Assembly: GCA_022711335.1 (NCBI GenBank)
Contig: JAKLFF010000002.1
Location: forward strand, 82,988-146,987
DNA: 64,000 nucleotides
Direction of reading: 5' to 3'
Source: Patescibacteria group bacterium
GTDB taxonomy: Bacteria; Patescibacteriota; Minisyncoccia; Moranbacterales; UBA2206
This document shows positions 3,034 to 41,408 of the stretch, piece by piece; within the stretch, counting starts at the first letter, position 1, and every line of letters starts with the position of its first letter. The translations under genes and the position numbers were made by a program. A model generated the notes under the pieces. That model was not told the origin of the DNA, did not search any database, and saw only the letters and a list, made by a program, of their open reading frames with translations.

Positions 3034-3068
3034 AAACACGCGCTAACAAGGGCGTGTTTGTTTTTTGT
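3034..3068. terminator. Bidirectional rho-independent terminator between two convergent transcripts
   Basis: ACACGC at 3036-3041 pairs with GCGTGT at 3052-3057 around a 10-nt loop. An A-tract lies upstream and the T-tract tttgttttttg lies downstream. Confidence 0.5.
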
Positions 3069-3141
3069 GTCCCCGAGAGGACTTGAACCTCTGACCTCAA
3101 GCTCCGCAAGCTTGCGCTCTATCCAACTGAGCTACGAGGAC
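3068..3141 (-). tRNA. tRNA-Arg (anticodon reads GCG)
   Basis: The reverse complement reads GTCCTCGTAGCTCAGTTGGATAGAGCGCAAGCTTGCGGAGCTTGAGGTCAGAGGTTCAAGTCCTCTCGGGGACA. It folds as a cloverleaf with anticodon loop TTGCGGA. Confidence 0.75.
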
Positions 3142-3165
3142 AATTTATTTTTTATTACATAGCGT

Positions 3166-3210
3166 GATACCTGCCTGCCGGCAGGCAGGTATCCACTGAG
3201 CTACAAGGAC
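3166..3210 (-). pseudogene. tRNA 5'-half fragment (21 nt, nearly identical to the 5' end of the adjacent tRNA-Arg) fused to a 28-bp perfect palindrome
   Basis: The minus strand reads GTCCTTGTAGCTCAGTGGATA and then CCTGCCTGCCGGCAGGCAGGTATC. The palindrome GATACCTGCCTGCCGGCAGGCAGGTATC occupies 3166-3193. The intact tRNA begins about 50 nt further on. Confidence 0.6.
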
Positions 3211-3241
3211 ATATAAACACACTAATACAACTGGCTATTTC

Positions 3242-4097: not shown

Positions 4098-6275
4098 ATG
4101 ATACATTTGGATACCCCTCTTAAAAACATTTCTAAAATCACCCCTAAATACGCCAAAGTTTTGGAAAAAATGGGCCTCGTTACTGTCCAGGATTTTTTGT
4201 TGTATTTCCCTTTCCGCTATGATGATTTTTCAAAAACCGTGGAATTGGGTCAGAATTATCTGGGTGAAACTATAACGGTCGAAGGAACAATTATAAAAGC
4301 CAAGAATATCAGAATTTTCAGGCGAAAAATGACAATCACGGAAATTGTCATTCAAGATAAAAACAACACCCCGTTAAAAACAGTTTGGTTTAATCAGCCC
4401 TATATTTTAGAAAATTTAAAAGAGGGCGAGTCAATCAGATTGTCCGGAAAATTGGCAATCGATAAAAAGATTTTTTCCATGGCTAATCCCGCCTGGGAAA
4501 AAGCTTCGCGCGATGCGACCAATACTGGAAGACTGGTCCCAGTTTACAGCGAAACTGCCGGCATTTCTTCCAAGTGGATCCGCTGGCAGATAAAGCCGCT
4601 TCTTCGATTTGCCAAAGATATTCCGGATATTTTACCAGAAGAAACAAGAAAAAAATTTAATCTCTATGATCTCCGCACAGCCATAACCCAGATTCATTTT
4701 CCGGATTCCCGCGAAAAACTGGTACGTGCCCAAAAAAGAATGGCTTTTCAAGAAATGTTTTTGGTCCAGCTCAAATCTTTGCAAGTTAAAAAACAATGGG
4801 AGAAAAATAACTCTATTGATATCAAATTCGATGAGAAATTAATCAAGGAATTTGTAGAAAAACTTCCATTCAAATTGACTAACGCGCAAAGAAAAGCCTC
4901 TTTTGAAATTCTAAAAGACCTCGAAAAATCAAAGCCGATGAACCGGCTGCTTGAAGGCGACGTCGGATCGGGAAAAACAGTCGTCGCGGCTATCTCCACG
5001 CTACAATCTATCTCGGCAGGTTATCAAGTAGCCATTATGGCGCCGACAGAAGTCTTGGCGCGGCAGCACTTTGAAAGTTTTTGCAAGTTATTTGAGAATT
5101 ACGGAATAAACATAGCCCTGTTGACAAATTCTTACCAAGAGATTAACAATTTTCAATTTTCAATTTTCAATTTTCAATCAATTTTCAATGACAAAATTTT
5201 AAAAAATAAAAAAAATAGCAGAGAATATTTATTAAAAAGTACAGCAGATGGAAAAATAAATTTAATAGTAGGAACACATGCTCTTATTCAAAAAGACGTA
5301 AGATTCAAGAATTTGGCTTTAATTATTATCGACGAACAGCATCGCTTCGGAGTGGCGCAACGTGCAACTTTGCAACAAGAAACGATGAGTATAAAAGACC
5401 CCGTAAAGTCGCCTAACGGCGACCACGGGGCAAGCGGCGAGATTAAAACTATCTCCCATCTTCTCACTATGACTGCTACGCCTATCCCGAGAACTTTAGC
5501 CATCGCTTTTTTTGGCAGCCTGGGTCTTTCAATTCTTGACGAAATGCCTAAAAACCGAAAGCCGATTGTCACTAAAATTGTCCCGCCCTCTGCCAGAAAT
5601 CAAAATTATAATTTCATCCGGCAGGAAATTGGATCCGGACGGCAGGTTTTTGTCATTTTCCCGCTAATTGAAGAATCAAAGGCTCTCTCGGAAGTGAAAG
5701 CGGCCGCAGAAGAATATAAAAAACTGCAGGATATATTTCCGGATTTTGAAATCGGACTTTTGCATGGACGAATGAAGCCAAAAGAAAAAGAAGAAACTAT
5801 GCAATTTTTTAAAGAGCAAAAAACTAAAATCCTTGTTTCCACTTCTGTTATTGAAGTCGGCATTGATATCCCGAACGCCACAGTTATGATCATTGAAAAT
5901 GCCGAAAGATTCGGGCTTTCCCAGCTTCATCAATTCCGCGGCCGTGTTGGCCGGGGCGAGCATCAGTCGTATTGTTTCCTTTTCACTGAAAGTAACACTC
6001 AAAAATCCATTGAAAGACTAAAAGCCCTTGAAAAAACCAATGACGGATTCGAGATCTCCAAAATCGATCTGGAACTGCGCGGTCCCGGACAATTTTTCGG
6101 CACAATTCAATCCGGCCTTCCAGACATCACCATGGAGAATCTGAGCAATGTGAAACTCATTAAATTCGCCCGCGAGGAAGCCACTAATTTGTTAAAAGTT
6201 GACCCCCGACTAAAAAAGCACCCGCTTTTGGCAGATGCTCTTTTGAGATTTTCAGAGAAGATTCACTTGGAATGA
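4098..6275 (+). CDS. recG: ATP-dependent DNA helicase RecG
   Basis: Has a wedge/OB N-terminal region, helicase motif I GDVGSGKT, motif II DEQHRFG, TATPIPRT and the downstream RecG signature. It also carries two internal insertions (features 5147-5190 and 5399-5430). Confidence 0.9.
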   Translation: MIHLDTPLKNISKITPKYAKVLEKMGLVTVQDFLLYFPFRYDDFSKTVELGQNYLGETITVEGTIIKAKNIRIFRRKMTITEIVIQDKNNTPLKTVWFNQPYILENLKEGESIRLSGKLAIDKKIFSMANPAWEKASRDATNTGRLVPVYSETAGISSKWIRWQIKPLLRFAKDIPDILPEETRKKFNLYDLRTAITQIHFPDSREKLVRAQKRMAFQEMFLVQLKSLQVKKQWEKNNSIDIKFDEKLIKEFVEKLPFKLTNAQRKASFEILKDLEKSKPMNRLLEGDVGSGKTVVAAISTLQSISAGYQVAIMAPTEVLARQHFESFCKLFENYGINIALLTNSYQEINNFQFSIFNFQSIFNDKILKNKKNSREYLLKSTADGKINLIVGTHALIQKDVRFKNLALIIIDEQHRFGVAQRATLQQETMSIKDPVKSPNGDHGASGEIKTISHLLTMTATPIPRTLAIAFFGSLGLSILDEMPKNRKPIVTKIVPPSARNQNYNFIRQEIGSGRQVFVIFPLIEESKALSEVKAAAEEYKKLQDIFPDFEIGLLHGRMKPKEKEETMQFFKEQKTKILVSTSVIEVGIDIPNATVMIIENAERFGLSQLHQFRGRVGRGEHQSYCFLFTESNTQKSIERLKALEKTNDGFEISKIDLELRGPGQFFGTIQSGLPDITMENLSNVKLIKFAREEATNLLKVDPRLKKHPLLADALLRFSEKIHLE
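5147..5190. repeat. Microsatellite (AATTTTC)n of about 6 units inside the recG reading frame
   Basis: caattttcaattttcaattttcaattttcaatcaattttcaatg encodes NNFQFSIFNFQSIFN, in-frame between helicase motifs I and II. Confidence 0.8.
5399..5430. repeat. 32-bp palindromic element inserted in-frame in recG
   Basis: CCCCGTAAAGTCGCCTAACGGCGACCACGGGG encodes PVKSPNGDHGA. It reappears in reverse orientation at 36089-36121 as ccccgtggtcgccgttgaggcgactttacgggg. Confidence 0.75.
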
Positions 6276-9414: not shown

Positions 9415-9485
9415 GTAGCCCTGTTTACAGGATGCCACCCGGAGGGTGGTCAGCCTCTGGCTGAAAAACCGGAAAGTTTTAAAAT
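9415..9485 (-). repeat. Copy W: degenerate tRNA-Glu 3'-half copy carrying the 30-nt insert
   Basis: gtagcc, then an 18-nt T-arm deletion, then cctgtttacaggatg, ccacccggagggtggtcagcctctggctga, aaaaccggaaagttttaaaat. It is a 66-bp perfect direct repeat of 10600-10665. Confidence 0.7.
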
Positions 9486-9671
9486 AGTAGACTACTTGCT
9501 CAATAGTTGGAACTAAGTTATCAAAAAATTGAAAGCGTGGCAAGAATTGAAAATAATTGCAACGGCGGATTTTATTAATTAAACCATATATTTTTCTTTA
9601 AATATAGGGAGTGAATCAAAAAATGTTCTTTGTAGAATTATATCTGCGACGGCCTGTTTGGTATGGAGCAA

Positions 9672-10575: not shown

Positions 10576-10665
10576 TGTAGCCCTAAGGGGAATCGAACCC
10601 CTGTTTACAGGATGCCACCCGGAGGGTGGTCAGCCTCTGGCTGAAAAACCGGAAAGTTTTAAAAT
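10576..10665 (-). repeat. Copy Z: tRNA-Glu 3' half carrying the 30-nt insert in the anticodon, preceded by a non-tRNA 17-mer
   Basis: The minus strand reads ATTTTAAAACTTTCCGG, TTTT, [TCAGCCAGAGGCTGACCACCCTCCGGGTGG], CATCCTGTAAACAGGGGTTCGATTCCCCTTAGGGCTACA. It ends immediately before the intact tRNA. Confidence 0.75.
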
Positions 10666-10667
10666 TG

Positions 10668-10739
10668 TAGCCCTAAGGGGAATCGAACCCCTGTTTACAG
10701 GATGAAAACCTGCTGTCCTAACCACTAGACGATAGGGCC
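10668..10739 (-). tRNA. tRNA-Glu (anticodon TTC), intact
   Basis: The reverse complement reads GGCCCTATCGTCTAGTGGTTAGGACAGCAGGTTTTCATCCTGTAAACAGGGGTTCGATTCCCCTTAGGGCTA. It folds as a full cloverleaf with anticodon loop TTTTCAT. Confidence 0.85.
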
Positions 10740-10816
10740 AGTAATTATTCTTCTATATAATAGTATTTTTTAATTTTACTTTTAATGACGTAAACATAAT
10801 TCATAAATTTAAAGTT

Positions 10817-10896
10817 CCTGTTTACAGGATGCCACCCGGAGGGTGGTCAGCCTCTGGCTGAAAAACCTGCTGTCCTAACCACTAGACGATAGGGCC
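10817..10896 (-). pseudogene. Copy X: tRNA-Glu 5' half, the 30-nt insert and the anticodon 3' stem, truncated before the T-arm
   Basis: The minus strand reads GGCCCTATCGTCTAGTGGTTAGGACAGCAGG, TTTT, the same 30-nt insert, CATCCTGTAAACAGG, and then unrelated AT-rich sequence. Confidence 0.75.
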
Positions 10897-31708: not shown

Positions 31709-33043
31709 CTAGTCCAGTATGCTTTTTTTTCTTAATTTTTTATGATAAGTTATTGCAAACCGATGCGCCTCATCACGCACTTGTTCAATTATAGTTTTTG
31801 GAATTTCTGGAACGGTTCCAAAAGAATAAATGTCTAATTTTTTTCGAGACAGTCCTTTGGCCACGGCTACAAGCGGAATTTCCAGATGGAAGTTGCGAAG
31901 AATTTTTCGAGCCATGTTTAAATGCCCTTTTCCGCCGTCAAGGATTATAAGATTAGGTTTCGGCCAGTTATTTTTGAGTCTTCGCGCCAACACCTCTTCC
32001 ATAGCGCCAACATCATTGGCGCCGAAAACAGTTTTAATCCTGAATTTCCGGTATTGGGATTTATTTGGCTTTATTTCGCCTTCCGAATTATCAAAAACCG
32101 CCATCGATCCAACAGAATATTTCCCAGAGATATTGGATATATCATAACCCTCTACTCGGAATTTTTCTTTTTTGTTATATGTTTCATGTTCTATGTTATA
32201 TGACATGAGCGCTATGTCTTGTATGTGCTGCAGCGCAAAAATTTTATTCCTCACCTCTCCTGCTTTTTCAAATTCATGCTTCCGGCTATATTCTTCCATC
32301 TCTTTTTTCATTCTGCTAATCAAACTTTTTTTCTTTCCTTCCAAAATCATCTGGATTCCCCGAATATTTTTCTGATAATCTTCTCTTGTAATTGCCCCAT
32401 CATACGGCCCGGGGCACAATCCTATTTGATAATCCAAGCAGCCCTTTTCCGTTTTTTGCGGCCTGGCGTGATATGGAAAAATTTTCCTTAATATTTTTAG
32501 AGCTGTTTCAATTTGGTGTTTTGACGTGTACGGACCGTAGATTTTTTTATATTGTATTTTTTGTAGGGACAGACCTTGTGTCTGTCCTTTCCGGGCGGAT
32601 GCAAGATCCGCCCCTACGTTTTTATCTAAATCCGTCTTCCTCATCACCACAAATCTTGGCCATTCTTCTTTTGTAACAGCCACGTAACAAAATGACTTAT
32701 CATCTTTCCCGTCTACATTGCATTTCGGCTGGAATTTCTTGATCAGTTCCTGCTCCAAAATATAGGCTTCGAGAACCGTGTCGGTTTTTCTGATTTCCAA
32801 GTCTTTCACTTCAGAAATGAACATTTCAATGGGCCGATTTCCATATCCCATTGATCGTAGGGACAGACCTTGTGTCTGTCCTTTCCGGGCGGATACAAGA
32901 TCCACCCCTACAAAATACGACCCGACCCGATCTTTCAAGCTCCCCGCCTTCCCCACATACAAAATCTTCCCGAATATATCCTTAAAAATATACACGCCAG
33001 GCGAAAATGGAAGATATTTGAGTTTTTTATTCAGATTTAACAT
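31709..33043 (-). CDS. uvrC: Excinuclease ABC subunit C (UvrC), short form lacking the C-terminal HhH, with two in-frame repeat insertions
   Basis: Has the GIY-YIG domain YLPFSPGVYIFKD...LYVGKAGSLKDRVGSYF, a UVR-like region and the C-terminal RNase H-like endonuclease region EGYDISNISG. The inserted peptides VGVDLVSARKGQTQGLSLRSM and VGADLASARKGQTQGLSLQKI derive from the 55-bp repeats. Confidence 0.8.
   Translation of the reverse strand: MLNLNKKLKYLPFSPGVYIFKDIFGKILYVGKAGSLKDRVGSYFVGVDLVSARKGQTQGLSLRSMGYGNRPIEMFISEVKDLEIRKTDTVLEAYILEQELIKKFQPKCNVDGKDDKSFCYVAVTKEEWPRFVVMRKTDLDKNVGADLASARKGQTQGLSLQKIQYKKIYGPYTSKHQIETALKILRKIFPYHARPQKTEKGCLDYQIGLCPGPYDGAITREDYQKNIRGIQMILEGKKKSLISRMKKEMEEYSRKHEFEKAGEVRNKIFALQHIQDIALMSYNIEHETYNKKEKFRVEGYDISNISGKYSVGSMAVFDNSEGEIKPNKSQYRKFRIKTVFGANDVGAMEEVLARRLKNNWPKPNLIILDGGKGHLNMARKILRNFHLEIPLVAVAKGLSRKKLDIYSFGTVPEIPKTIIEQVRDEAHRFAITYHKKLRKKSILD
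32563..32617. repeat. 55-bp double-hairpin repeat, copy 1, in-frame within uvrC
   Basis: GTAGGGACAGACCTTGTGTCTGTCCTTTCCGGGCGGATGCAAGATCCGCCCCTAC. Confidence 0.8.
32857..32911. repeat. 55-bp double-hairpin repeat, copy 2, in-frame within the uvrC GIY-YIG region
   Basis: GTAGGGACAGACCTTGTGTCTGTCCTTTCCGGGCGGATACAAGATCCACCCCTAC. Confidence 0.8.
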
Positions 33044-36000
33044 TATTTTTTATTTTCAAAAATTTCCTCAAATACTTCCCCGTCCAGCTTTCTTTGTGAT
33101 ATTTGACTACTTCTTCCGGCGTGCCGGTTACCACAATTTTTCCGCCGTTTTCTCCGCCTTCCGGTCCAAGGTCGATTATCCAATCGGCAGTTTTTATCAC
33201 ATCCATATTATGCTCGATTACCACTACGCTATTTCCTGAATCAACCAGCCTATTTAGCACATTTAATAATTTTTTTATATCGTCGAAATGAAGTCCGGTG
33301 GTCGGCTCGTCAAGAATATACAGTGTATCGCCGGTAGCACGTCTCGCTAGTTCTGTCGCCAGTTTTATTCTCTGCGCTTCTCCGCCAGAAAGAGTTGTGG
33401 CCGATTGGCCGAGTTTGATATATCCCAGCCCAACTTCATCCAAGATTTTAAGCTTAGCATAGATTTCCGGATAATTTTCAAAAAATATTTTTCCTTCTGC
33501 CACTGTCATTTCAAGAACTTCAGCAATATTTTTGCCCTTATATTTCACTTGGAGCGTTTCGCTATTATATCTCTTTCCGTGGCAGACATCGCACGGCAGA
33601 TAAACATCCGGCATAAATTGCATTTCGATCTTGAGATATCCATCGCCCTTGCAATTATCGCACCGGCCTCCATTCACGTTGAACGAAAATCTTCCCGGCC
33701 CATACCCTTTTCCTTTGGCATCACGCGTAGCAGAAAACAATTCTCTTATCGGCGTAAATAATCCTGTATAAGTAGCTGGATTGGAGCGTGGAGTGCGTCC
33801 GATCGGCGACTGGTCGATCATTATGACTTTATTAATATGATGCATTCCGATAATCTCACTGTGGCTCCCCGGCCTGTCCAAAGAACGCATGATTTTGGAA
33901 GCCAAGGATTTATAAAGAACATCTTCAACCAAAGTGGATTTCCCGGAGCCGGAAACTCCAGTAACACAAGTAAAAACTTTCAGGGGAAATTCAGCCGTAA
34001 TATTTTTCAAATTATTTTCGCGCGCTCCGCGAACAGTTATCCATTTTTTGTTCTTGATTGGACGCCGGAAAGCCGGAATTTCTATTTTCAAATCACCCCG
34101 AAGATAGGCTGCTGTCAAAGATTTTTTGTTTTTTATAACTTCTTTTGGAGAACCTTCGACAATAATTTTTCCGCCTAAATTTCCAGCGCCGAGTCCAATA
34201 TCAACAATGTGATCAGCGGCGCGAATTGTCTCTTCATCATGTTCGACAACAATCACGCTATTGCCAACATTTTTAAGTCTCAAAAGGGTTTCCAATAATT
34301 TAGAATTATCCCTAGCATGAAGCCCAACCGATGGTTCATCTAAAATATATAATACTCCGACTAGTTGCGATCCGATCTGCGAAGCCAAGCGGATTCTTTG
34401 CGTTTCTCCTCCGGCCAAAGTGTTGGCCGCGCGTCCTAAAGTTAGATATCCTAATCCGACATTTTCCAAAAAACCCAGCCGATTTTGAATTTCCTTCAAA
34501 ATTCTTCCAGCAATTATTTCTTCACGCTTGTTTATTTTAAGTTCTTTAAAAAATTTTAAAGTTAGATCAACGCTGTCTCTTGACAGCTCATATATATTTT
34601 TATTCCCAACTGTAACTAATAGCGCTTCTTTTTTATATCTCGACCCATGGCAAACCGAACAGGGGTTTTGCGACATATATTTTTCAATATCTTGCCGCAC
34701 TGCTTCTGAATCCGTTTTTTTATAACGATCTTCAAGATAGCCGATAACACCTCTCCATTCCATATTATATTTCCAAACTGAACCGCTTTTTGACCGCAAA
34801 GAAACAGCGACATCCTCATAATCATATTCGTAGGTCAATTCACCTTTATTTTTATTATTATCATCGGTTTCCGGCCTGCCATGCATCAATAAATTAAAAT
34901 CATCGCTCGATAAATCGCGAAGGCGTATATTTTCAGAAATATGAAAATGATTGGCTACGGATCGCAAAATTGTTCCCTGCCAATTATTCTTTTTATAGCT
35001 CCACGGCATTAGTCCCCCTTGAGATATGGTTTTATTTATGTCCGGAGCCACCAGATCCGGATCAATTTCCCGCTTTGTGCCCAAGCCCTCGCAAGCCGGG
35101 CAAGCGCCATAGGGGCTATTAAAGGAGAAGAGTCTCGATTCGAGCGCTGGAAAAGTTATTTCGTGGATCGGACAGGATAGGTTTTGATTGAAAATTAGAT
35201 CTTCTTTTTTTTGATTTTTTGCCCTACTCAGTAAATTTTGCTCTGCAAAATTATTTTTCTTACTAGAAAAATACTCAACAGGATGAATTTTCACTAAGCC
35301 TTGCGAAAGTTTCAACGCCTTTTCCACATCCTCAAAAATTCTGGAAATATTCCGATCACTGATTTCCACTTCATCAACAACTATATCTATGTCGTGCTTT
35401 TTATACCGTTCTAACTTTATTTTCTCGCTGATTTTAGAATCCAGTTCGATTTTTTTTCCATTCACATAGGCTCCGGAAAATCCGCGCCGGAACATTTCAC
35501 TCATCATCGTGGAATATTCACCTTTCCGACTGCGAACAACCGGAGACAAAATTTCTATCTTACAATTATTTTGTAGGGACAGGCCTTGTGCCTGTCCTTT
35601 TTGGGCGGATACAAGATCCGCCCCTACATTTTTCCCCGTACATAAATCTAAAATCCTATCCACAATTTCATCCACTGACAATTTTTTTATTTCCTGATTG
35701 CATATGGGACAGTGCGGAATTCCGATTTTAGAATAAAGAAGCCGGAGATAATCATGGATTTCTGTCACTGTTCCCACAGTCGATCTGGGATTATGTGAAG
35801 CTGATTTTTGATCAATGGAAATGGCCGGACTCAAACCCTGAATCAGATCCACATCCGGTTTGTCCATCTGGCCCAAAAATTGGCGAGCATAAGATGACAA
35901 ACTTTCTAAATATCTTCTCTGCCCTTCAGCAAAAATGGTATCGAAAGCCAGCGTGCTCTTTCCCGAACCGCTTATGCCTGTAAAAACAATAAACTTGTTA

Positions 36001-36071
36001 CGAGGTAAGTTTAAATTTATATTTTTTAGGTTGTGCTCCCTGGCACCTCGTATAATAATTTCTTCTTCCAT
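33027..36071 (-). CDS. UvrA paralogue (UvrA2, 1014 aa) carrying an in-frame repeat insertion
   Basis: Has the UvrA architecture with two ABC modules ([23 protein letters not shown]), Zn-finger cysteines and ABC signature motifs. It contains the insert GKNVGADLVSAQKGQAQGLSLQ, which comes from the 55-bp repeat. Confidence 0.85.
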   Translation of the reverse strand: MEEEIIIRGAREHNLKNINLNLPRNKFIVFTGISGSGKSTLAFDTIFAEGQRRYLESLSSYARQFLGQMDKPDVDLIQGLSPAISIDQKSASHNPRSTVGTVTEIHDYLRLLYSKIGIPHCPICNQEIKKLSVDEIVDRILDLCTGKNVGADLVSAQKGQAQGLSLQNNCKIEILSPVVRSRKGEYSTMMSEMFRRGFSGAYVNGKKIELDSKISEKIKLERYKKHDIDIVVDEVEISDRNISRIFEDVEKALKLSQGLVKIHPVEYFSSKKNNFAEQNLLSRAKNQKKEDLIFNQNLSCPIHEITFPALESRLFSFNSPYGACPACEGLGTKREIDPDLVAPDINKTISQGGLMPWSYKKNNWQGTILRSVANHFHISENIRLRDLSSDDFNLLMHGRPETDDNNKNKGELTYEYDYEDVAVSLRSKSGSVWKYNMEWRGVIGYLEDRYKKTDSEAVRQDIEKYMSQNPCSVCHGSRYKKEALLVTVGNKNIYELSRDSVDLTLKFFKELKINKREEIIAGRILKEIQNRLGFLENVGLGYLTLGRAANTLAGGETQRIRLASQIGSQLVGVLYILDEPSVGLHARDNSKLLETLLRLKNVGNSVIVVEHDEETIRAADHIVDIGLGAGNLGGKIIVEGSPKEVIKNKKSLTAAYLRGDLKIEIPAFRRPIKNKKWITVRGARENNLKNITAEFPLKVFTCVTGVSGSGKSTLVEDVLYKSLASKIMRSLDRPGSHSEIIGMHHINKVIMIDQSPIGRTPRSNPATYTGLFTPIRELFSATRDAKGKGYGPGRFSFNVNGGRCDNCKGDGYLKIEMQFMPDVYLPCDVCHGKRYNSETLQVKYKGKNIAEVLEMTVAEGKIFFENYPEIYAKLKILDEVGLGYIKLGQSATTLSGGEAQRIKLATELARRATGDTLYILDEPTTGLHFDDIKKLLNVLNRLVDSGNSVVVIEHNMDVIKTADWIIDLGPEGGENGGKIVVTGTPEEVVKYHKESWTGKYLRKFLKIKNNVKSE
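35573..35627. repeat. 55-bp double-hairpin repeat, copy 3, in-frame within uvrA2
   Basis: GTAGGGACAGGCCTTGTGCCTGTCCTTTTTGGGCGGATACAAGATCCGCCCCTAC. Confidence 0.8.
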
Positions 36072-36088
36072 ATTTTTTAAGTTGCCTG

Positions 36089-36165
36089 CCCCGTGGTCGC
36101 CGTTGAGGCGACTTTACGGGGTGTTCTCTCGCACCTCGTATAATTATTTCGTCCATATTCATTCG
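36089..36165. repeat. 32-bp palindromic element, copy 2, followed by a duplicated uvrA2 start region (pseudo-start)
   Basis: ccccgtggtcgccgttgaggcgactttacgggg at 36089-36121. At 36128-36165, ...cgcacctcgtataattatttcgtccat repeats ...gcacctcgtataataatttcttcttccat at 36040-36071, which is the uvrA2 start codon and first 12 codons, with a few mismatches. Confidence 0.7.
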
Positions 36166-36185
36166 TACATTCGTATATTTGTATT

Positions 36186-36222
36186 AGATTCGTAATTCGT
36201 AGAGAAAACCAAAAACATTCCC
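36186..36222. repeat. Direct repeat 1 of AGATTCGTAATTCGTAGAGAA(A/C)(A/C)CAAAAA, with tandem ATTCGTA heptads
   Basis: attcgtacattcgtatatttgtattagattcgtaattcgtagagaaaaccaaaaaca matches 38961-39005 at about 26 of 28 positions. It lies upstream of uvrA2 and downstream of lexA. Confidence 0.6.
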
Positions 36223-36291: not shown

Positions 36292-36954
36292 CTATAAGCT
36301 AACATATTTCACCGGTAAAACCTTCTTATACACTCCAGCAACAAGAATAGAGTCTGACTCGTGGATAAAAATCGGCTGATGGAAAGTGTTGGTCGAGTGC
36401 GGGAAAAGACCGATGATATCATCACTGACTTTTTTATATTTTTTAATCGTTGCCATGCCATTTATCACCGCCACCACGATTTTTCCCTCCAGCTCGTCTT
36501 TTCCTTCATATTTTTCAAAAATCACGTAGTCACCGTCATTGATGCTTGATTTGTCCATAGAATCCCCAAGCGCTTTTACGGCAAAGAGATCAGCCGGTTT
36601 GGCATTTCGAAAAAGCGCCTTTGAAATTTGAAGAAATCCATCCACATTGTCTTCCGCATAAGCCAGCGCGTCTCCGCAGGAAGCCAGGCCATAAACCGGA
36701 ATAGAAAAAATATTTTTGAAATTGGAAAAGCTTTGATTTTTAATCAGATAAATTTTTTTGTCATCATCGCGCTTGATTAAGTCTTTTCTTTCTAGAGCTT
36801 CTATTACTTGCATAATTGATTTCAGACAATCTTTCGATCCTCGTTCAGACAAAAATTTATGCAGTCCATAGCTGGTCGGATTTTCTCTTTTTTGATCAAT
36901 GTACTCCTTGATGATTTCAAGGATGCCGTTTTGTTTCGATGTTAATTTTTGCAT
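36292..36954 (-). CDS. lexA: LexA repressor (S24 peptidase, SOS regulator)
   Basis: Has an N-terminal winged-helix region (MQKLTSKQNGILEIIKEY...), the cleavage-site region GLASCGDALAY and catalytic GDSM...K (ALGDSMDKSSINDGD...ATIKKY). The ORF-track start at 37137 reads through an upstream palindromic element and is not credible. Confidence 0.82.
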   Translation of the reverse strand: MQKLTSKQNGILEIIKEYIDQKRENPTSYGLHKFLSERGSKDCLKSIMQVIEALERKDLIKRDDDKKIYLIKNQSFSNFKNIFSIPVYGLASCGDALAYAEDNVDGFLQISKALFRNAKPADLFAVKALGDSMDKSSINDGDYVIFEKYEGKDELEGKIVVAVINGMATIKKYKKVSDDIIGLFPHSTNTFHQPIFIHESDSILVAGVYKKVLPVKYVSL

Positions 36955-38960: not shown

Positions 38961-39005
38961 AGGTAGGTATATTCGTAAAGATTCGTAATTCGTAGAGAAC
39001 AACAA
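38961..39005. repeat. Direct repeat 2 of AGATTCGTAATTCGTAGAGAA..., preceded by a GC palindrome cctgcctgccggtaggtagg
   Basis: cgcctgcctgccggtaggtaggtatattcgtaaagattcgtaattcgtagagaacaacaaaaaaaca. Confidence 0.6.
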
Positions 39006-39227
39006 AAAAACACGCCTAAAGCGTGCTCAACCTGCGATCCTAAAAACAATATGTAACTTGTAATAATTAGAATACAGCATATTATTGGGTCTATTGGGTT
39101 TTATATTTATTTTTGAACCCATTGCTGATTTCAAGATATTTTCAAGATTTTAAGGAATAGCTGACGTGCCTTTATTATATACTTGGCTTATTTAAACGCA
39201 AGCCGAGTTATGCACACCCCGCCATTT

Positions 39228-39279
39228 CCCCTTCTCCCTCCGGGAGAAGGTGGTCCGCCTAGGCGGACCGGATGAGGGA
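39228..39279. repeat. Hairpin element G, copy 2, immediately downstream of the uvrB stop
   Basis: ccccttctccctccgggagaaggtggtccgcctaggcggaccggatgaggga contains the 18-bp perfect palindrome GGTCCGCCTAGGCGGACC. Confidence 0.65.
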
Positions 39280-39284
39280 AAAAT

Positions 39285-41408
39285 TTATTTTATTTGCAAC
39301 TTCCTCAGCTCCCCTATTTCATCCCGAATTATCGCCGCTTTTTCAAATTCCAGATTTCTGACTGCGTCTTTCATTTCTTTTTCCTTCTGTTTCACATATC
39401 CCGCAATATCTTCCAATGATTCCAGCTCCGAAAAATCCCGGATCACCTGCGGATTGATTTCATGATCTACAATAGACTGGATTTTCTTTTTGATGGTCTT
39501 GGGAGTAATATGATTCTTTCTATTATATTCCATCTGCAGCTTTCTTCTTCTTTCAGTTTCCGCAATCGCCCGCTTCATAGAACCGGTAATTTCATCGGCG
39601 TATAAAATTACTTTCCCGCTGACATTTCGAGCTGCCCGCCCGATGGTTTGAATAAGTGATGTTTCGCTTCGTAAAAATCCTTCCTTATCAGCATCAAGTA
39701 TGGCAACTAGCGACACTTCCGGAAGATCCAGTCCTTCGCGAAGCAGATTCACTCCGACCAAAACATCAAACTCTCCTCGCCGCAATTTTTCTAATATTCT
39801 AATCCGATCTAGCGTGTCCACCCCGCTGTGCAGATATTCCGCCTTGATTTTCGACTCTTTTAAGAAATCAGAAAGGTCTTCAGCCATTTTTTTAGTGAGC
39901 GTGGTTATCAGCACTCTTTCTTTCTTTTTCATTACTTCCTTAATTTCTTCCGTCACGTCCTTTACTTGTCCACGAGTCGGCTTGATTTCCAGTTCCGGAT
40001 CAATGAGTCCTGTAGGACGAATAATCTGTTCGACTACATTATTCCCCTTCTCCCTCCGGGAGAAGGTGGCCCGCTTAGCGAGACGGATGAGGGAGGAGTT
40101 CTGTGTTTTATCCCTCTCCTTCCCTTCGGGCATCCTCTCCCTAAGGGAGAGGAGGATTTTTTTAGATTTTTCCAATTCATACTTCCCGGGAGTCGCCGAT
40201 GTAAAAACTACTTGATTTATCTTCTGCTCAAATTCACTAAATTTGAGGGGACGATTGTCATAAGCTGAAGGAAGCCTAAAGCCATTGTCTATAAGAGCTG
40301 TTTTCCGAGCATGATCTCCATTATACATTCCATTTAACTGCGGAATAGTTACATGCGACTCATCTATTACTATTAGAAAGTCCTCCGAAAAATAGTCGAT
40401 AAGAGCATACGGCGGTTCGCCTTTTTTTCTGTCAGTTAAATATAAAGAGTAATTTTCAATTCCATTACAATATCCGATTTCGCGCATCATCTCCAGATCT
40501 TGCCTGGTTCTTCTAGAAAGTCTCTCGGCTTCCAAAATTTTATTGTTATCCTGCAAATATTTGAGCTGTTCTTCCAATTCATTCTCTATTTTCTTAAGCG
40601 CTTCTTCCATCACCGGTTCCGGCACCACGAAATGCTTGGCCGGATAAATCAAAGTTTTTTCCAGCTTTCCCAGCTCTTCGCCTGTCAGAAAATCATACTC
40701 TTGGATTTTAATAATCCTATCTCCTTCAATATTTATTCTAGTCACCACTTCTCTGCCTGGAGTCATAATTTCTAAAGTGTTTCCAGTGAAACGGAATTTT
40801 CCGCGGCTTAATAAATCGCTCCGGTTGTATTGCATGTCAATCAATCTTTTTATCGTCTTTTCACGATCAAATCCTAAGGCGAGGCCTTTGGATTCCAAAG
40901 GCCTCGCCTTAGGATTGACTTTTAATTCCAGCGCGATATCCCGATAATATTCCGGCGATCCCAAGCCATAGATGCAAGAAACTGAAGCGCAGATGATTAC
41001 ATCCCGGCGCGAAAGTAATGCCGCCGTGGAAGCATGGCGCAACCGGTCAATTTCTTCATTAATCTGGGCTTCTTTTTCAATGTAAGTATCAGTTGAAGCA
41101 ATGTAGGCTTCCGGCTGATAATAGTCATAATAAGAAACAAAATACTCCACGGCGTTTTTTGGGAAAAAAGTGCGAAACTCCTGAGCCAGCTGCGCCGCGA
41201 GAGTCTTGTTGGGTGCGATTACCAAAGTCGGTTTTTGCACCTTTTCAATCACATTGGCAATGGTAAAAGTCTTTCCTGACCCTGTCACGCCCAAAAGCGT
41301 CTGAAATTTCTGTCCGGACCGAAGACCTTCCGCCAGTTTTAAAATAGCCTGCGGTTGGTCGCCTTCAGGCTTAAATTTTGAATTTATTTTAAATTTATTA
41401 ACATTCAT
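39285..41408 (-). CDS. uvrB: Excinuclease ABC subunit B (UvrB) with an in-frame insert of about 40 aa
   Basis: Has Walker [11 protein letters not shown], helicase motifs, the UvrB beta-hairpin region and the C-terminal UVR domain. The insert [42 protein letters not shown] lies between SATPG...ELE and [10 protein letters not shown]. Confidence 0.9.
40044..40156. repeat. Hairpin element G, copy 1 (about 113 bp), in-frame inside uvrB
   Basis: ccccttctccctccgggagaaggtggcccgcttagcgagacggatgagggaggag...cctctccctaagggagaggagg shares about 50 nt with 39228-39279. Confidence 0.7.

Follow-up and report, generated by a model that had tools for sequence, protein, structure and literature searches.

A split uvrA start in a Patescibacteria genome as one instance of a recurring polar arrangement around a short hairpin element

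Why does a uvrA gene carry two versions of its own start, with a hairpin inside the first of them? The question is raised by a stretch of 64,000 nucleotides (nt) from contig JAKLFF010000002.1 of a Patescibacteria group bacterium, referred to here as the window, in which a GC-rich hairpin element, which we call E, interrupts an upstream copy of the uvrA start. An earlier reading made from the letters of this DNA (the sequence-only reading) had proposed either an insertion accompanied by an unusually long target duplication or a repaired insertion. For each copy of E we aligned one flank to the other, using shuffled sequences as controls, and identified neighboring genes by Pfam and by reading their termini. 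Judged from these alignments, the uvrA scar is one instance of a recurring polar architecture.

The uvrA start region is composed of four segments, read on the minus strand in the order A1, E, B1 and A2-B2 (Table 1). Without the 37 nt of E, these segments form an in-frame tandem repeat, MDEIIIRGAREHNLKN|MEEEIIIRGAREHNLKN|INL..., of 48 + 51 nt. E is positioned inside the first repeat unit, 12 nt before the end of that unit, and not between the units. The sequence-only reading had recognized the upstream copy, which exists, but at 36156-36121 (ATGGACGAA...GAACAC) and not at 36165-36128; its 38-bp duplication is real and is larger, 48/51 nt, as B1 copies the next four codons. B1 matches 36033-36019 at 14 of 15 nt. 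The count of about six differences between the start regions was accurate, since A1-B1 and A2-B2 are separated by six substitutions and one GAA codon. By class, these are five synonymous changes, one conservative non-synonymous change (D/E) and one codon indel. The junction between the units, AAAAAAT|ATGGAA, is located in a common pentamer, AATAT, and the alignment of the flank repeats has a z of 10.4, a value reached by 0 of 100 shuffles. ATG 36071, proposed earlier as the real start, opens the 1014-residue open reading frame (ORF) and is chosen by gene callers in all 10 other assemblies with an identical protein. The protein from this downstream ATG is complete and collinear with UvrA orthologs. 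As had also been described, an upstream ORF runs out of frame for about 52 codons (52 from ATG 36156, 54 from ATG 36162); its stop at 35998 lies 73 nt inside uvrA, and it is called as a gene in none of 10 contigs. The sequence across the upstream copy, the hairpin and the start is identical in 11 independent sequences (NCBI, JGI, ENA, Logan), and this agreement makes an assembly artefact unlikely. The resulting uvrA leader is approximately 85 nt longer than the leaders of relatives. B1 now forms the AT-rich leader of the working start, like native leaders, and no Shine-Dalgarno motif was found in the native leaders of the clade (L091-L093) or in the new uvrA leader. The upstream ORF or the leader may act on uvrA expression.

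Comparison to relatives distinguishes the native start from the newcomer. In locus L091, from a related species (genes about 75-83% identical at the DNA level), the TACGAAT block leads directly into a lone start, ATGGATGAG...CACAACTTAAAAAAC, and neither hairpin nor repeat is present at this uvrA start. The 46-nt TACGAAT block is 100% identical between the window and L091, though the genes are only about 78% identical. Single uvrA starts are also present in L092, L093 and L135, and L091, L092 and L093 all show CAC|AAC, the site without E. The Leu codon of B1, TTA, is the same as in L091. Both spellings of the N-terminus are real starts among UvrA orthologs, MDE in P0004 and P0009 and MEEE in P0002, and over a 39-nt core three of four outgroups differ from A1 by 3 nt fewer than from A2, while the fourth is equally distant from both. 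Because L091 has the block with a single start, other relatives have single starts and orthologs use both spellings, A1 together with B1 is the native start, which E interrupts after codon 12 and before codon 13. The interrupted copy is, on the same comparison, a dead remnant that now lies in the 5′ leader, while A2-B2 keeps uvrA whole. This matches the earlier view of an element inserted into the uvrA start, borne out by the empty sites in L091-L093, and of a displaced pseudo-start with a start re-created downstream. A relative with the upstream copy as its sole start and no palindrome, which the sequence-only reading had expected to count against it, was found in L091; it supports insertion because it is the expected ancestral empty site. 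A paralog origin of the upstream copy was rejected, since the second uvrA gene starts MPKNILKS... and has unrelated 5′ DNA.

The uvrA start also varies within the species of the window. Strains L007-L009 have a swapped leader and swapped first codons (MEDE type) in otherwise identical sequence, and in them another segment, itself bearing a palindrome, takes the place of the TACGAAT block. These strains make it clear that short patches are exchanged at the uvrA locus. TACGAAT or TACGAAA blocks occur at several places, with a partial copy at 38971-39000 upstream of the lexA-containing operon. The block lies at 2957-3002 of L091 and is absent in L092, L093 and L135, and a TACGAAT-like block adjoins the hppA remnant in L113, downstream of hppA. 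The TACGAAT block could be a LexA operator or another small mobile repeat.

E folds into an imperfect hairpin with a 33-nt core (36121-36089), built from two stems of 6 bp each, a 3x1 internal loop and a loop of 5 nt. The 32-bp palindrome of the sequence-only reading is therefore present, in the form of this imperfect core within a 37-nt insert. The DNA fold energy is -12.1 kcal/mol (z = -4.1), and the hairpin pattern is expected 0.00 times by chance in the window, where only two copies occur, in uvrA and recG. No Rfam match was obtained for E at the uvrA locus. A role as an intrinsic terminator was rejected in the absence of a T-run; the promoter and terminator scan was otherwise uninformative. 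A metagenome scan with the E core returned 39 contigs, with about 30 true copies on AT-rich contigs at about 20 distinct sites. Two variant copies (L110 and L124+) carry compensatory stem changes. The named neighbor protein beside metagenome copies, MiaB, has a 'Candidatus ...' metagenome-assembled genome as its source. E was not found in two scans of viral contigs. The empty sites in L091-L093, the clean insertion in recG and the approximately 20 further sites together identify E as an insertion, and from this distribution E is a family of mobile hairpin elements.

The length of E determines how it is read. Copies of 36 nt, a multiple of three (3n), lie in frame, while copies of 35 and 37 nt would shift the frame; the uvrA copy is one base longer than the 36-nt form and has shifted the reading frame. 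The 36-nt copies were found in ORFs of recG, bipA, a 523-residue protein and two shorter ORFs. In 5/5 independent ORFs they are read on the coding strand and in one frame, giving the peptide PVKSP(N/S/G)GDHGA. Three of the six frames of E are open, and five of five in one frame has P ~0.004 by hand arithmetic. The recG copy, whose loop is one base shorter than that of uvrA E, is an exact 12-residue insertion between D and G in 5 of 118 RecG orthologs, most of which have D-G. Among these 118, a decayed E is seen in three and a tandem double E in one (P0342). No flanking duplication surrounds E in recG, and because this insertion is clean it fixes the ends of the element. This D|G site of RecG lies between helicase motifs II and III, corresponds to window 5399/5400 and is a hotspot for insertions. 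Another repeat peptide, PRESASSPRESA, occurs there in P0267, P0268, P0290, P0358 and P0360, and P0346 and P0347 have an insertion of about 140 residues at the same site, in proteins that carry a PF13366 match.

Significant flank repeats were found at seven further independent sites besides uvrA (Table 1). When each site is oriented by E, 8/8 sites have one order: a long copy, E, a short stub and a second, intact copy. The long copy lies 0-8 nt from the 5′ (CCCC) end of E at all eight. The stub continues the same unit for 0-13 nt; rplK is the exception, with a terminator-like hairpin of 48 nt after E. At seven of the eight loci the second copy begins 5-23 nt past the hairpin, and in rplK it begins 52 nt past it. 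This polarity of E relative to the copies gives a sign test value of ~0.008 (hand arithmetic). Except in rplK, the gene body is joined to the intact copy, and at the seven loci where the unit is at a gene end its outer edge is 0-10 nt from a start or stop codon. In uvrA, lepA, miaB, hppA and RNase J, E is located inside the first unit and is followed by a 6-12-nt stub. Repeat length ranges from 14 to 51 nt across loci. Every E copy flanked by repeats is 35 or 37 nt long and breaks the frame; duplication is present at 0/6 sites with a 3n E compared to 8/14 sites with a non-3n E (hypergeometric, Fisher-type p ~0.02, calculated by hand). The miaB layout is identical in nine contigs from different samples, assemblers and archives.

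Table 1. Positions of the segments of the split uvrA start, of neighboring genes and the second E copy in the window, and of the further sites at which E is flanked by repeats (contig handles in place of window positions).
Feature	Position	Strand	Remarks
A1, native uvrA start remnant as read here	36121-36156	-	codons 1-12, MDEIIIRGAREH; DNA ATGGACGAAATAATTATACGAGGTGCGAGAGAACAC
E, GC-rich hairpin element	36084-36120	-	37 nt, CCCGTAAAGTCGCCTCAACGGCGACCACGGGGCAGGC
B1, native codons 13-16 as read here	36072-36083	-	AAC TTA AAA AAT = NLKN, AACTTAAAAAAT; separated from A1 by E
A2-B2, intact second start copy	36021-36071	-	MEEEIIIRGAREHNLKN; DNA ATGGAAGAAGAAATTATTATACGAGGTGCCAGGGAGCACAACCTAAAAAAT; working uvrA 5′ end
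TACGAAT-repeat block	36161-36206	-	46 nt, four TACGAAT copies; native 5′ leader beside original start
Out-of-frame upstream ORF	35998-36162	-	crosses A1 and E
lexA-like repressor gene	36292-36954	-	adjoins uvrA upstream, same strand; TIGR00498 88.5 bits, under curated cutoff; Peptidase_S24 gene calls
uvrA	33027-36071	-	1014 aa; NCBIfam NF001503 (1422 bits), TIGR00630; gene calls L001-L010
uvrC-like gene	31709-33043	-	444 aa; between both uvrA genes; GIY-YIG match only faint
Second E copy, in recG	5400-5435	+	36 nt, in frame, read as PVKSPNGDHGAS
lepA-like GTPase	L119		5′ end
miaB-type methylthiotransferase	L121, L130, L140-146		5′ end
H+-pyrophosphatase (hppA)	L113, L124		3′ end
RNase J	L108		3′ end
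Ribosomal protein L3 (rplC)	L110		3′ end
Ribosomal protein L11 (rplK)	L101, L111		3′ end
GT2 glycosyltransferase	L114		inside gene; perfect 14-mer repeat on both sides of E

The differences between the paired copies are those expected of alleles. Pooled over the eight loci, the copies differ by 47 synonymous and 5 non-synonymous changes (pS 0.80, pN 0.025, pN/pS 0.03), and third codon positions hold 41 of the 52 differences. Stop codons are preserved across copies, TAG in one and TAA in the other. A binomial test against a model in which one copy decays neutrally while the other takes only silent changes gave p ~1e-15, and neutral decay of an in-situ duplicate was rejected on this synonymous-only pattern. 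Copy identity is 76-88% across loci. Codons for the same residue are spelled differently at a frequency of about 0.55 between copies (hand tally), compared to 0.45-0.49 for UvrA orthologs between species and 0.62 for full saturation. The copies have thus diverged synonymously as much as species have. At the hppA locus, L136 provides an E-free close relative of L124 (95% protein identity) with a single hppA end. This end differs at 5/33 nt from the L124 remnant and at 9/33 nt from the L124 working unit, while the preceding 600 nt are about 12% different. Because the L136 end is closer to the remnant, the working unit is read as the newcomer in hppA. A long foreign tract in hppA was rejected, as the unusual divergence of L124 from L136 is confined to the final ~33 nt. 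From these comparisons we infer that the two copies are different alleles and that the second copy was not made by the insertion.

How could two alleles of one gene end come to flank a hairpin? The explanation that we favor, to which we give roughly an even chance, is that two alleles of the same gene end, one with E and one without, were joined illegitimately and that selection acted on the products. The joint would be guided by microhomology (AATAT in uvrA) and would lie 3′ of the hairpin, only a few bases from it. It could form if a nascent strand or a DNA 3′ end terminating immediately beyond the folded hairpin is poorly anchored and re-pairs nearby. Selection would then retain only products whose duplicated unit reaches the ORF boundary, so that a whole gene survives, and the short, diverged repeats would resist deletion by recombination, so that the scar persists. 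Homology-facilitated illegitimate recombination, reportedly described in naturally transformable bacteria by de Vries and Wackernagel in 2002 and by Prudhomme et al. in 2002, would be similar in combining a homologous side with a microhomology joint, as at AATAT in uvrA, and in setting foreign beside resident sequence; the copies here are allele-like, and no donor was identified. It differs in that the joint here lies 4-17 nt 3′ of a specific hairpin and duplicates a gene end.

Several results weigh against allele joining. No donor allele, E-only allele or recombination intermediate was found, and a protein search with a synthetic UvrA N-terminus containing an in-frame E found no such allele; a scan of genome contigs for the UvrA N-terminus, dominated by generic UvrA patterns, returned just two distant Patescibacteria loci. 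Alleles with only 75-85% identity should seldom recombine. The 'new' segment in hppA seems confined to about 33 nt, which is very short for foreign DNA, and the recoded block is only 33-51 nt across loci, with its source unexplained. Allele joining does not account for the one-sided polarity either, because the complementary strand folds even better (-14.5 kcal/mol). Clear microhomology at the junction is seen only in uvrA and is weak at the other loci. The layout is present in L113 and L124 but not in L136, though L136 is closer to L124. L113 and L124 share the junction position in hppA, and each remnant matches the M or L of its own gene. Independent events or selection on the remnant fit this match better than one old event.

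A one-step event in situ is a possible alternative, which we consider doubtful. During replication, a nascent strand would have copied E elsewhere, returned to uvrA, slipped back over a short stretch as the new hairpin loosened its primer end, and re-copied an E-free template, leaving copies that were identical at birth and later came to differ through patchy homologous exchange with relatives. This sequence of events accounts for the A1-E-stub-A2 layout, for a polarity that does not vary and for a repeat of minimal length that stops at the ORF boundary, and it explains the geometry as well as allele joining does. Patchy exchange is visible in strains L007-L009, and identical partial copies flank a different hairpin element at a tRNA-Glu gene in the same window (described below), although the identity of tRNA copies is uninformative because tRNAs are conserved between species. 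Against it, an extra allele replacement is needed at each of the eight loci, and perfect 35-50-nt repeats should vanish quickly.

More speculatively, and in our view rather unlikely, E hairpins would be polar end-points of DNA exchange in the candidate phyla radiation (CPR), or the remnants would be under protein-level selection for a new function. For the former, a nuclease barrier, a nick signal or release of a primer end would make transferred or new strands stop 3′ of the hairpin, within a few bases of it, and illegitimate joining would follow. E would spread in this manner, leaving gene-end duplications of two alleles.

A functional arrangement with both copies under selection, whether as a leader (remnant, hairpin and upstream ORF) that tunes SOS-controlled expression of uvrA, as a site where ribosomes hop from the upstream copy to the matching downstream codon or through reversible excision of E permitted by the repeats, is improbable. 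It would be consistent with remnants that retain frame, start or stop codon and amino acids despite near-saturated synonymous change, with the match of each hppA remnant to the M or L of its own gene, and with the position of uvrA directly downstream of lexA. The hairpin also begins on the last base of CAC, a codon that is repeated downstream. Translational bypassing is known from T4 gene 60 and from the mitochondrial GC-rich 'byp' inserts of Magnusiomyces, and the uvrA arrangement is similar in having a short GC-rich hairpin in the coding sequence of an AT-rich genome, with matching codons (CAC) on both sides. However, the would-be take-off codon is followed by CCC GTA and not by a stop codon, and an intact ATG with an ortholog-like N-terminus comes after it, from which a complete, ortholog-collinear protein is encoded. 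In the 3′-end cases the remnant lies after the stop codon, out of reach of translational selection. Close relatives, L136 and L091-L093, do without the arrangement.

Duplication of a long target site, the first of the two options in the sequence-only reading, is distinctly improbable. Transposition of E with staggered cuts approximately 50 nt apart would have duplicated the uvrA start, and direct repeats do flank E at eight loci, with a perfect 14-mer on both sides in L114. However, such a mechanism predicts E exactly between the units, whereas E lies inside the first unit in uvrA, lepA, miaB, hppA and RNase J, and the 36-nt insertion in recG is clean. In addition, the copies would start out identical, and decay of the dead copy should affect every codon position, whereas the differences are nearly all synonymous and the copies are allele-like. 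An assembly artefact, in which the contigs would be chimeras of two co-occurring strains joined at a repeated hairpin, has next to no probability: all data are metagenome assemblies and E is repeated, but the 11 uvrA sequences and the nine miaB contigs agree across samples, assemblers and archives, and the junction from stub to second copy must be in the reads to be assembled.

Other hairpins and repeats in the window were inspected for similar scars. Most of the other perfect GC-rich hairpins lack flank duplication, and the exception is tRNA-Arg(gcg), at 3067-3215 on the minus strand. Here, a 21-nt remnant of the 5′ end, GTCCTTGTAGCTCAGTGGATA, runs into the perfect palindrome GATACCTGCCTGCCGGCAGGCAGGTATC (3166-3193), and an intact tRNA-Arg lies 24 nt downstream of the palindrome; the layout is the one found at E, a gene end duplicated around a palindrome, with a different element. 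The tRNA-Glu(ttc) gene at 10667-10739 (region 10576-10896) has partial copies of itself on both sides. Upstream are the 5′ half (35 nt), a 30-nt double hairpin, TCAGCCAGAGGCTGACCACCCTCCGGGTGG, within the anticodon, and then 15 nt; downstream, 6 nt are followed by the same 30 nt and then by the 3′ half (39 nt). Each copy matches the tRNA with 100% identity, and a 72-nt copy of the tRNA-Glu unit is also found at 9419-9490. Another GC-rich palindromic element, CCCTCATCCGG...CCTTCTCCC(N)GGGAGAAGG, is located at 39215-39279, just after the stop of ORF 39285-41408. It is also present inside that ORF (40043-40086) and in the uvrA leader of another species (L135, 1441-1490).

The window has a G+C content of 39%, and the host of an identical UvrA protein is given by NCBI as Candidatus Moranbacteria (Patescibacteria/CPR). 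The operon on the minus strand has the order lexA-like, uvrA, uvrC-like and second uvrA (Table 1). The start of the uvrC-like gene overlaps the end of uvrA by 17 nt, and start calls for it vary (444, 432 or 409 residues). A PF05635 gene, encoding a protein of the 23S-rRNA-intervening-sequence type, lies between lexA and uvrA in L091, L093, L135 and the P0004 locus and does not occur there in the window. UvrA orthologs (P0004, P0010, P0011 and others) span 944-1073 residues owing to short lineage-specific inserts. A 13-residue insert core, ASTRGDDRSSTRG, occurs at three different positions in three orthologs, and in P0004 and P0011 the core is extended to 15 residues, PASTRGDDRSSTRGG. Further insert peptides common to UvrA orthologs, such as PHPxR...SPYKGEG, are recurrent. 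These shared peptides look like more families of in-frame mobile inserts.

E can be compared to several known systems. Integrative islands at gene ends, such as those specific for tRNA genes or dusA, are kilobase-sized and carry an integrase between displaced and replacement ends. They are similar in that the displaced native end and the working replacement differ as alleles, but only 49 nt (E plus a 12-nt stub) separate the uvrA copies, and many different genes are targeted. Unlike MITEs (miniature transposable elements with inverted repeats) and insertion sequences, E has no fixed-length direct repeats abutting both ends, and none at all in recG. Repetitive extragenic palindromic sequences (REPs) and bacterial interspersed mosaic elements (BIMEs), mobilized by RAYT transposases, are GC-rich imperfect palindromes of 20-40 nt, dispersed in hundreds of extragenic copies per genome. 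E resembles them as a short GC-rich imperfect palindrome (33-nt core) with compensatory stem changes, but it lies inside genes (recG, bipA and other ORFs), with 2 copies in 64 kb. Rickettsia palindromic elements (RPEs) are palindromic selfish DNA found in frame in unrelated housekeeping genes, to which they add a conserved peptide (PMC10969869). E is likewise palindromic and in frame in unrelated ORFs, adding PVKSPxGDHGA. It differs in size (35-37 nt compared to approximately 100-150 nt) and in host (Patescibacteria, not Rickettsia), and frame-shifting length variants at gene ends with a regenerated end are not mentioned in the RPE review (PMC10969869). Such variants are not known to have been described. 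Overall, E resembles a very small RPE and a REP sequence, and it departs from RPEs, REPs and MITEs in size, location or target duplication. Our search of the literature turned up neither a report of such elements from candidate-phylum bacteria nor a paper that ties hairpins and gene-end duplications to illegitimate recombination. The recurring layout points to an undescribed insertion or recombination process.

These findings bear first on annotation: gene callers pass over such scars, and pseudo-starts, upstream ORFs and 12-residue inserts in conserved proteins of candidate-phylum bacteria (RecG, BipA and UvrA) go unnoticed. In uncultured organisms, a 35-37-nt hairpin that moves between genes and lineages, lies in frame in core enzymes and recurs with a polar duplication of gene ends that mixes alleles provides a sequence-level handle on DNA exchange and repair. 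If the hairpins are polar end-points of exchange, or if the remnants are under selection, this would represent a new interplay between an ultra-small mobile element and recombination. If the hairpin sets the position of the joint, the process would be testable in transformable model bacteria.

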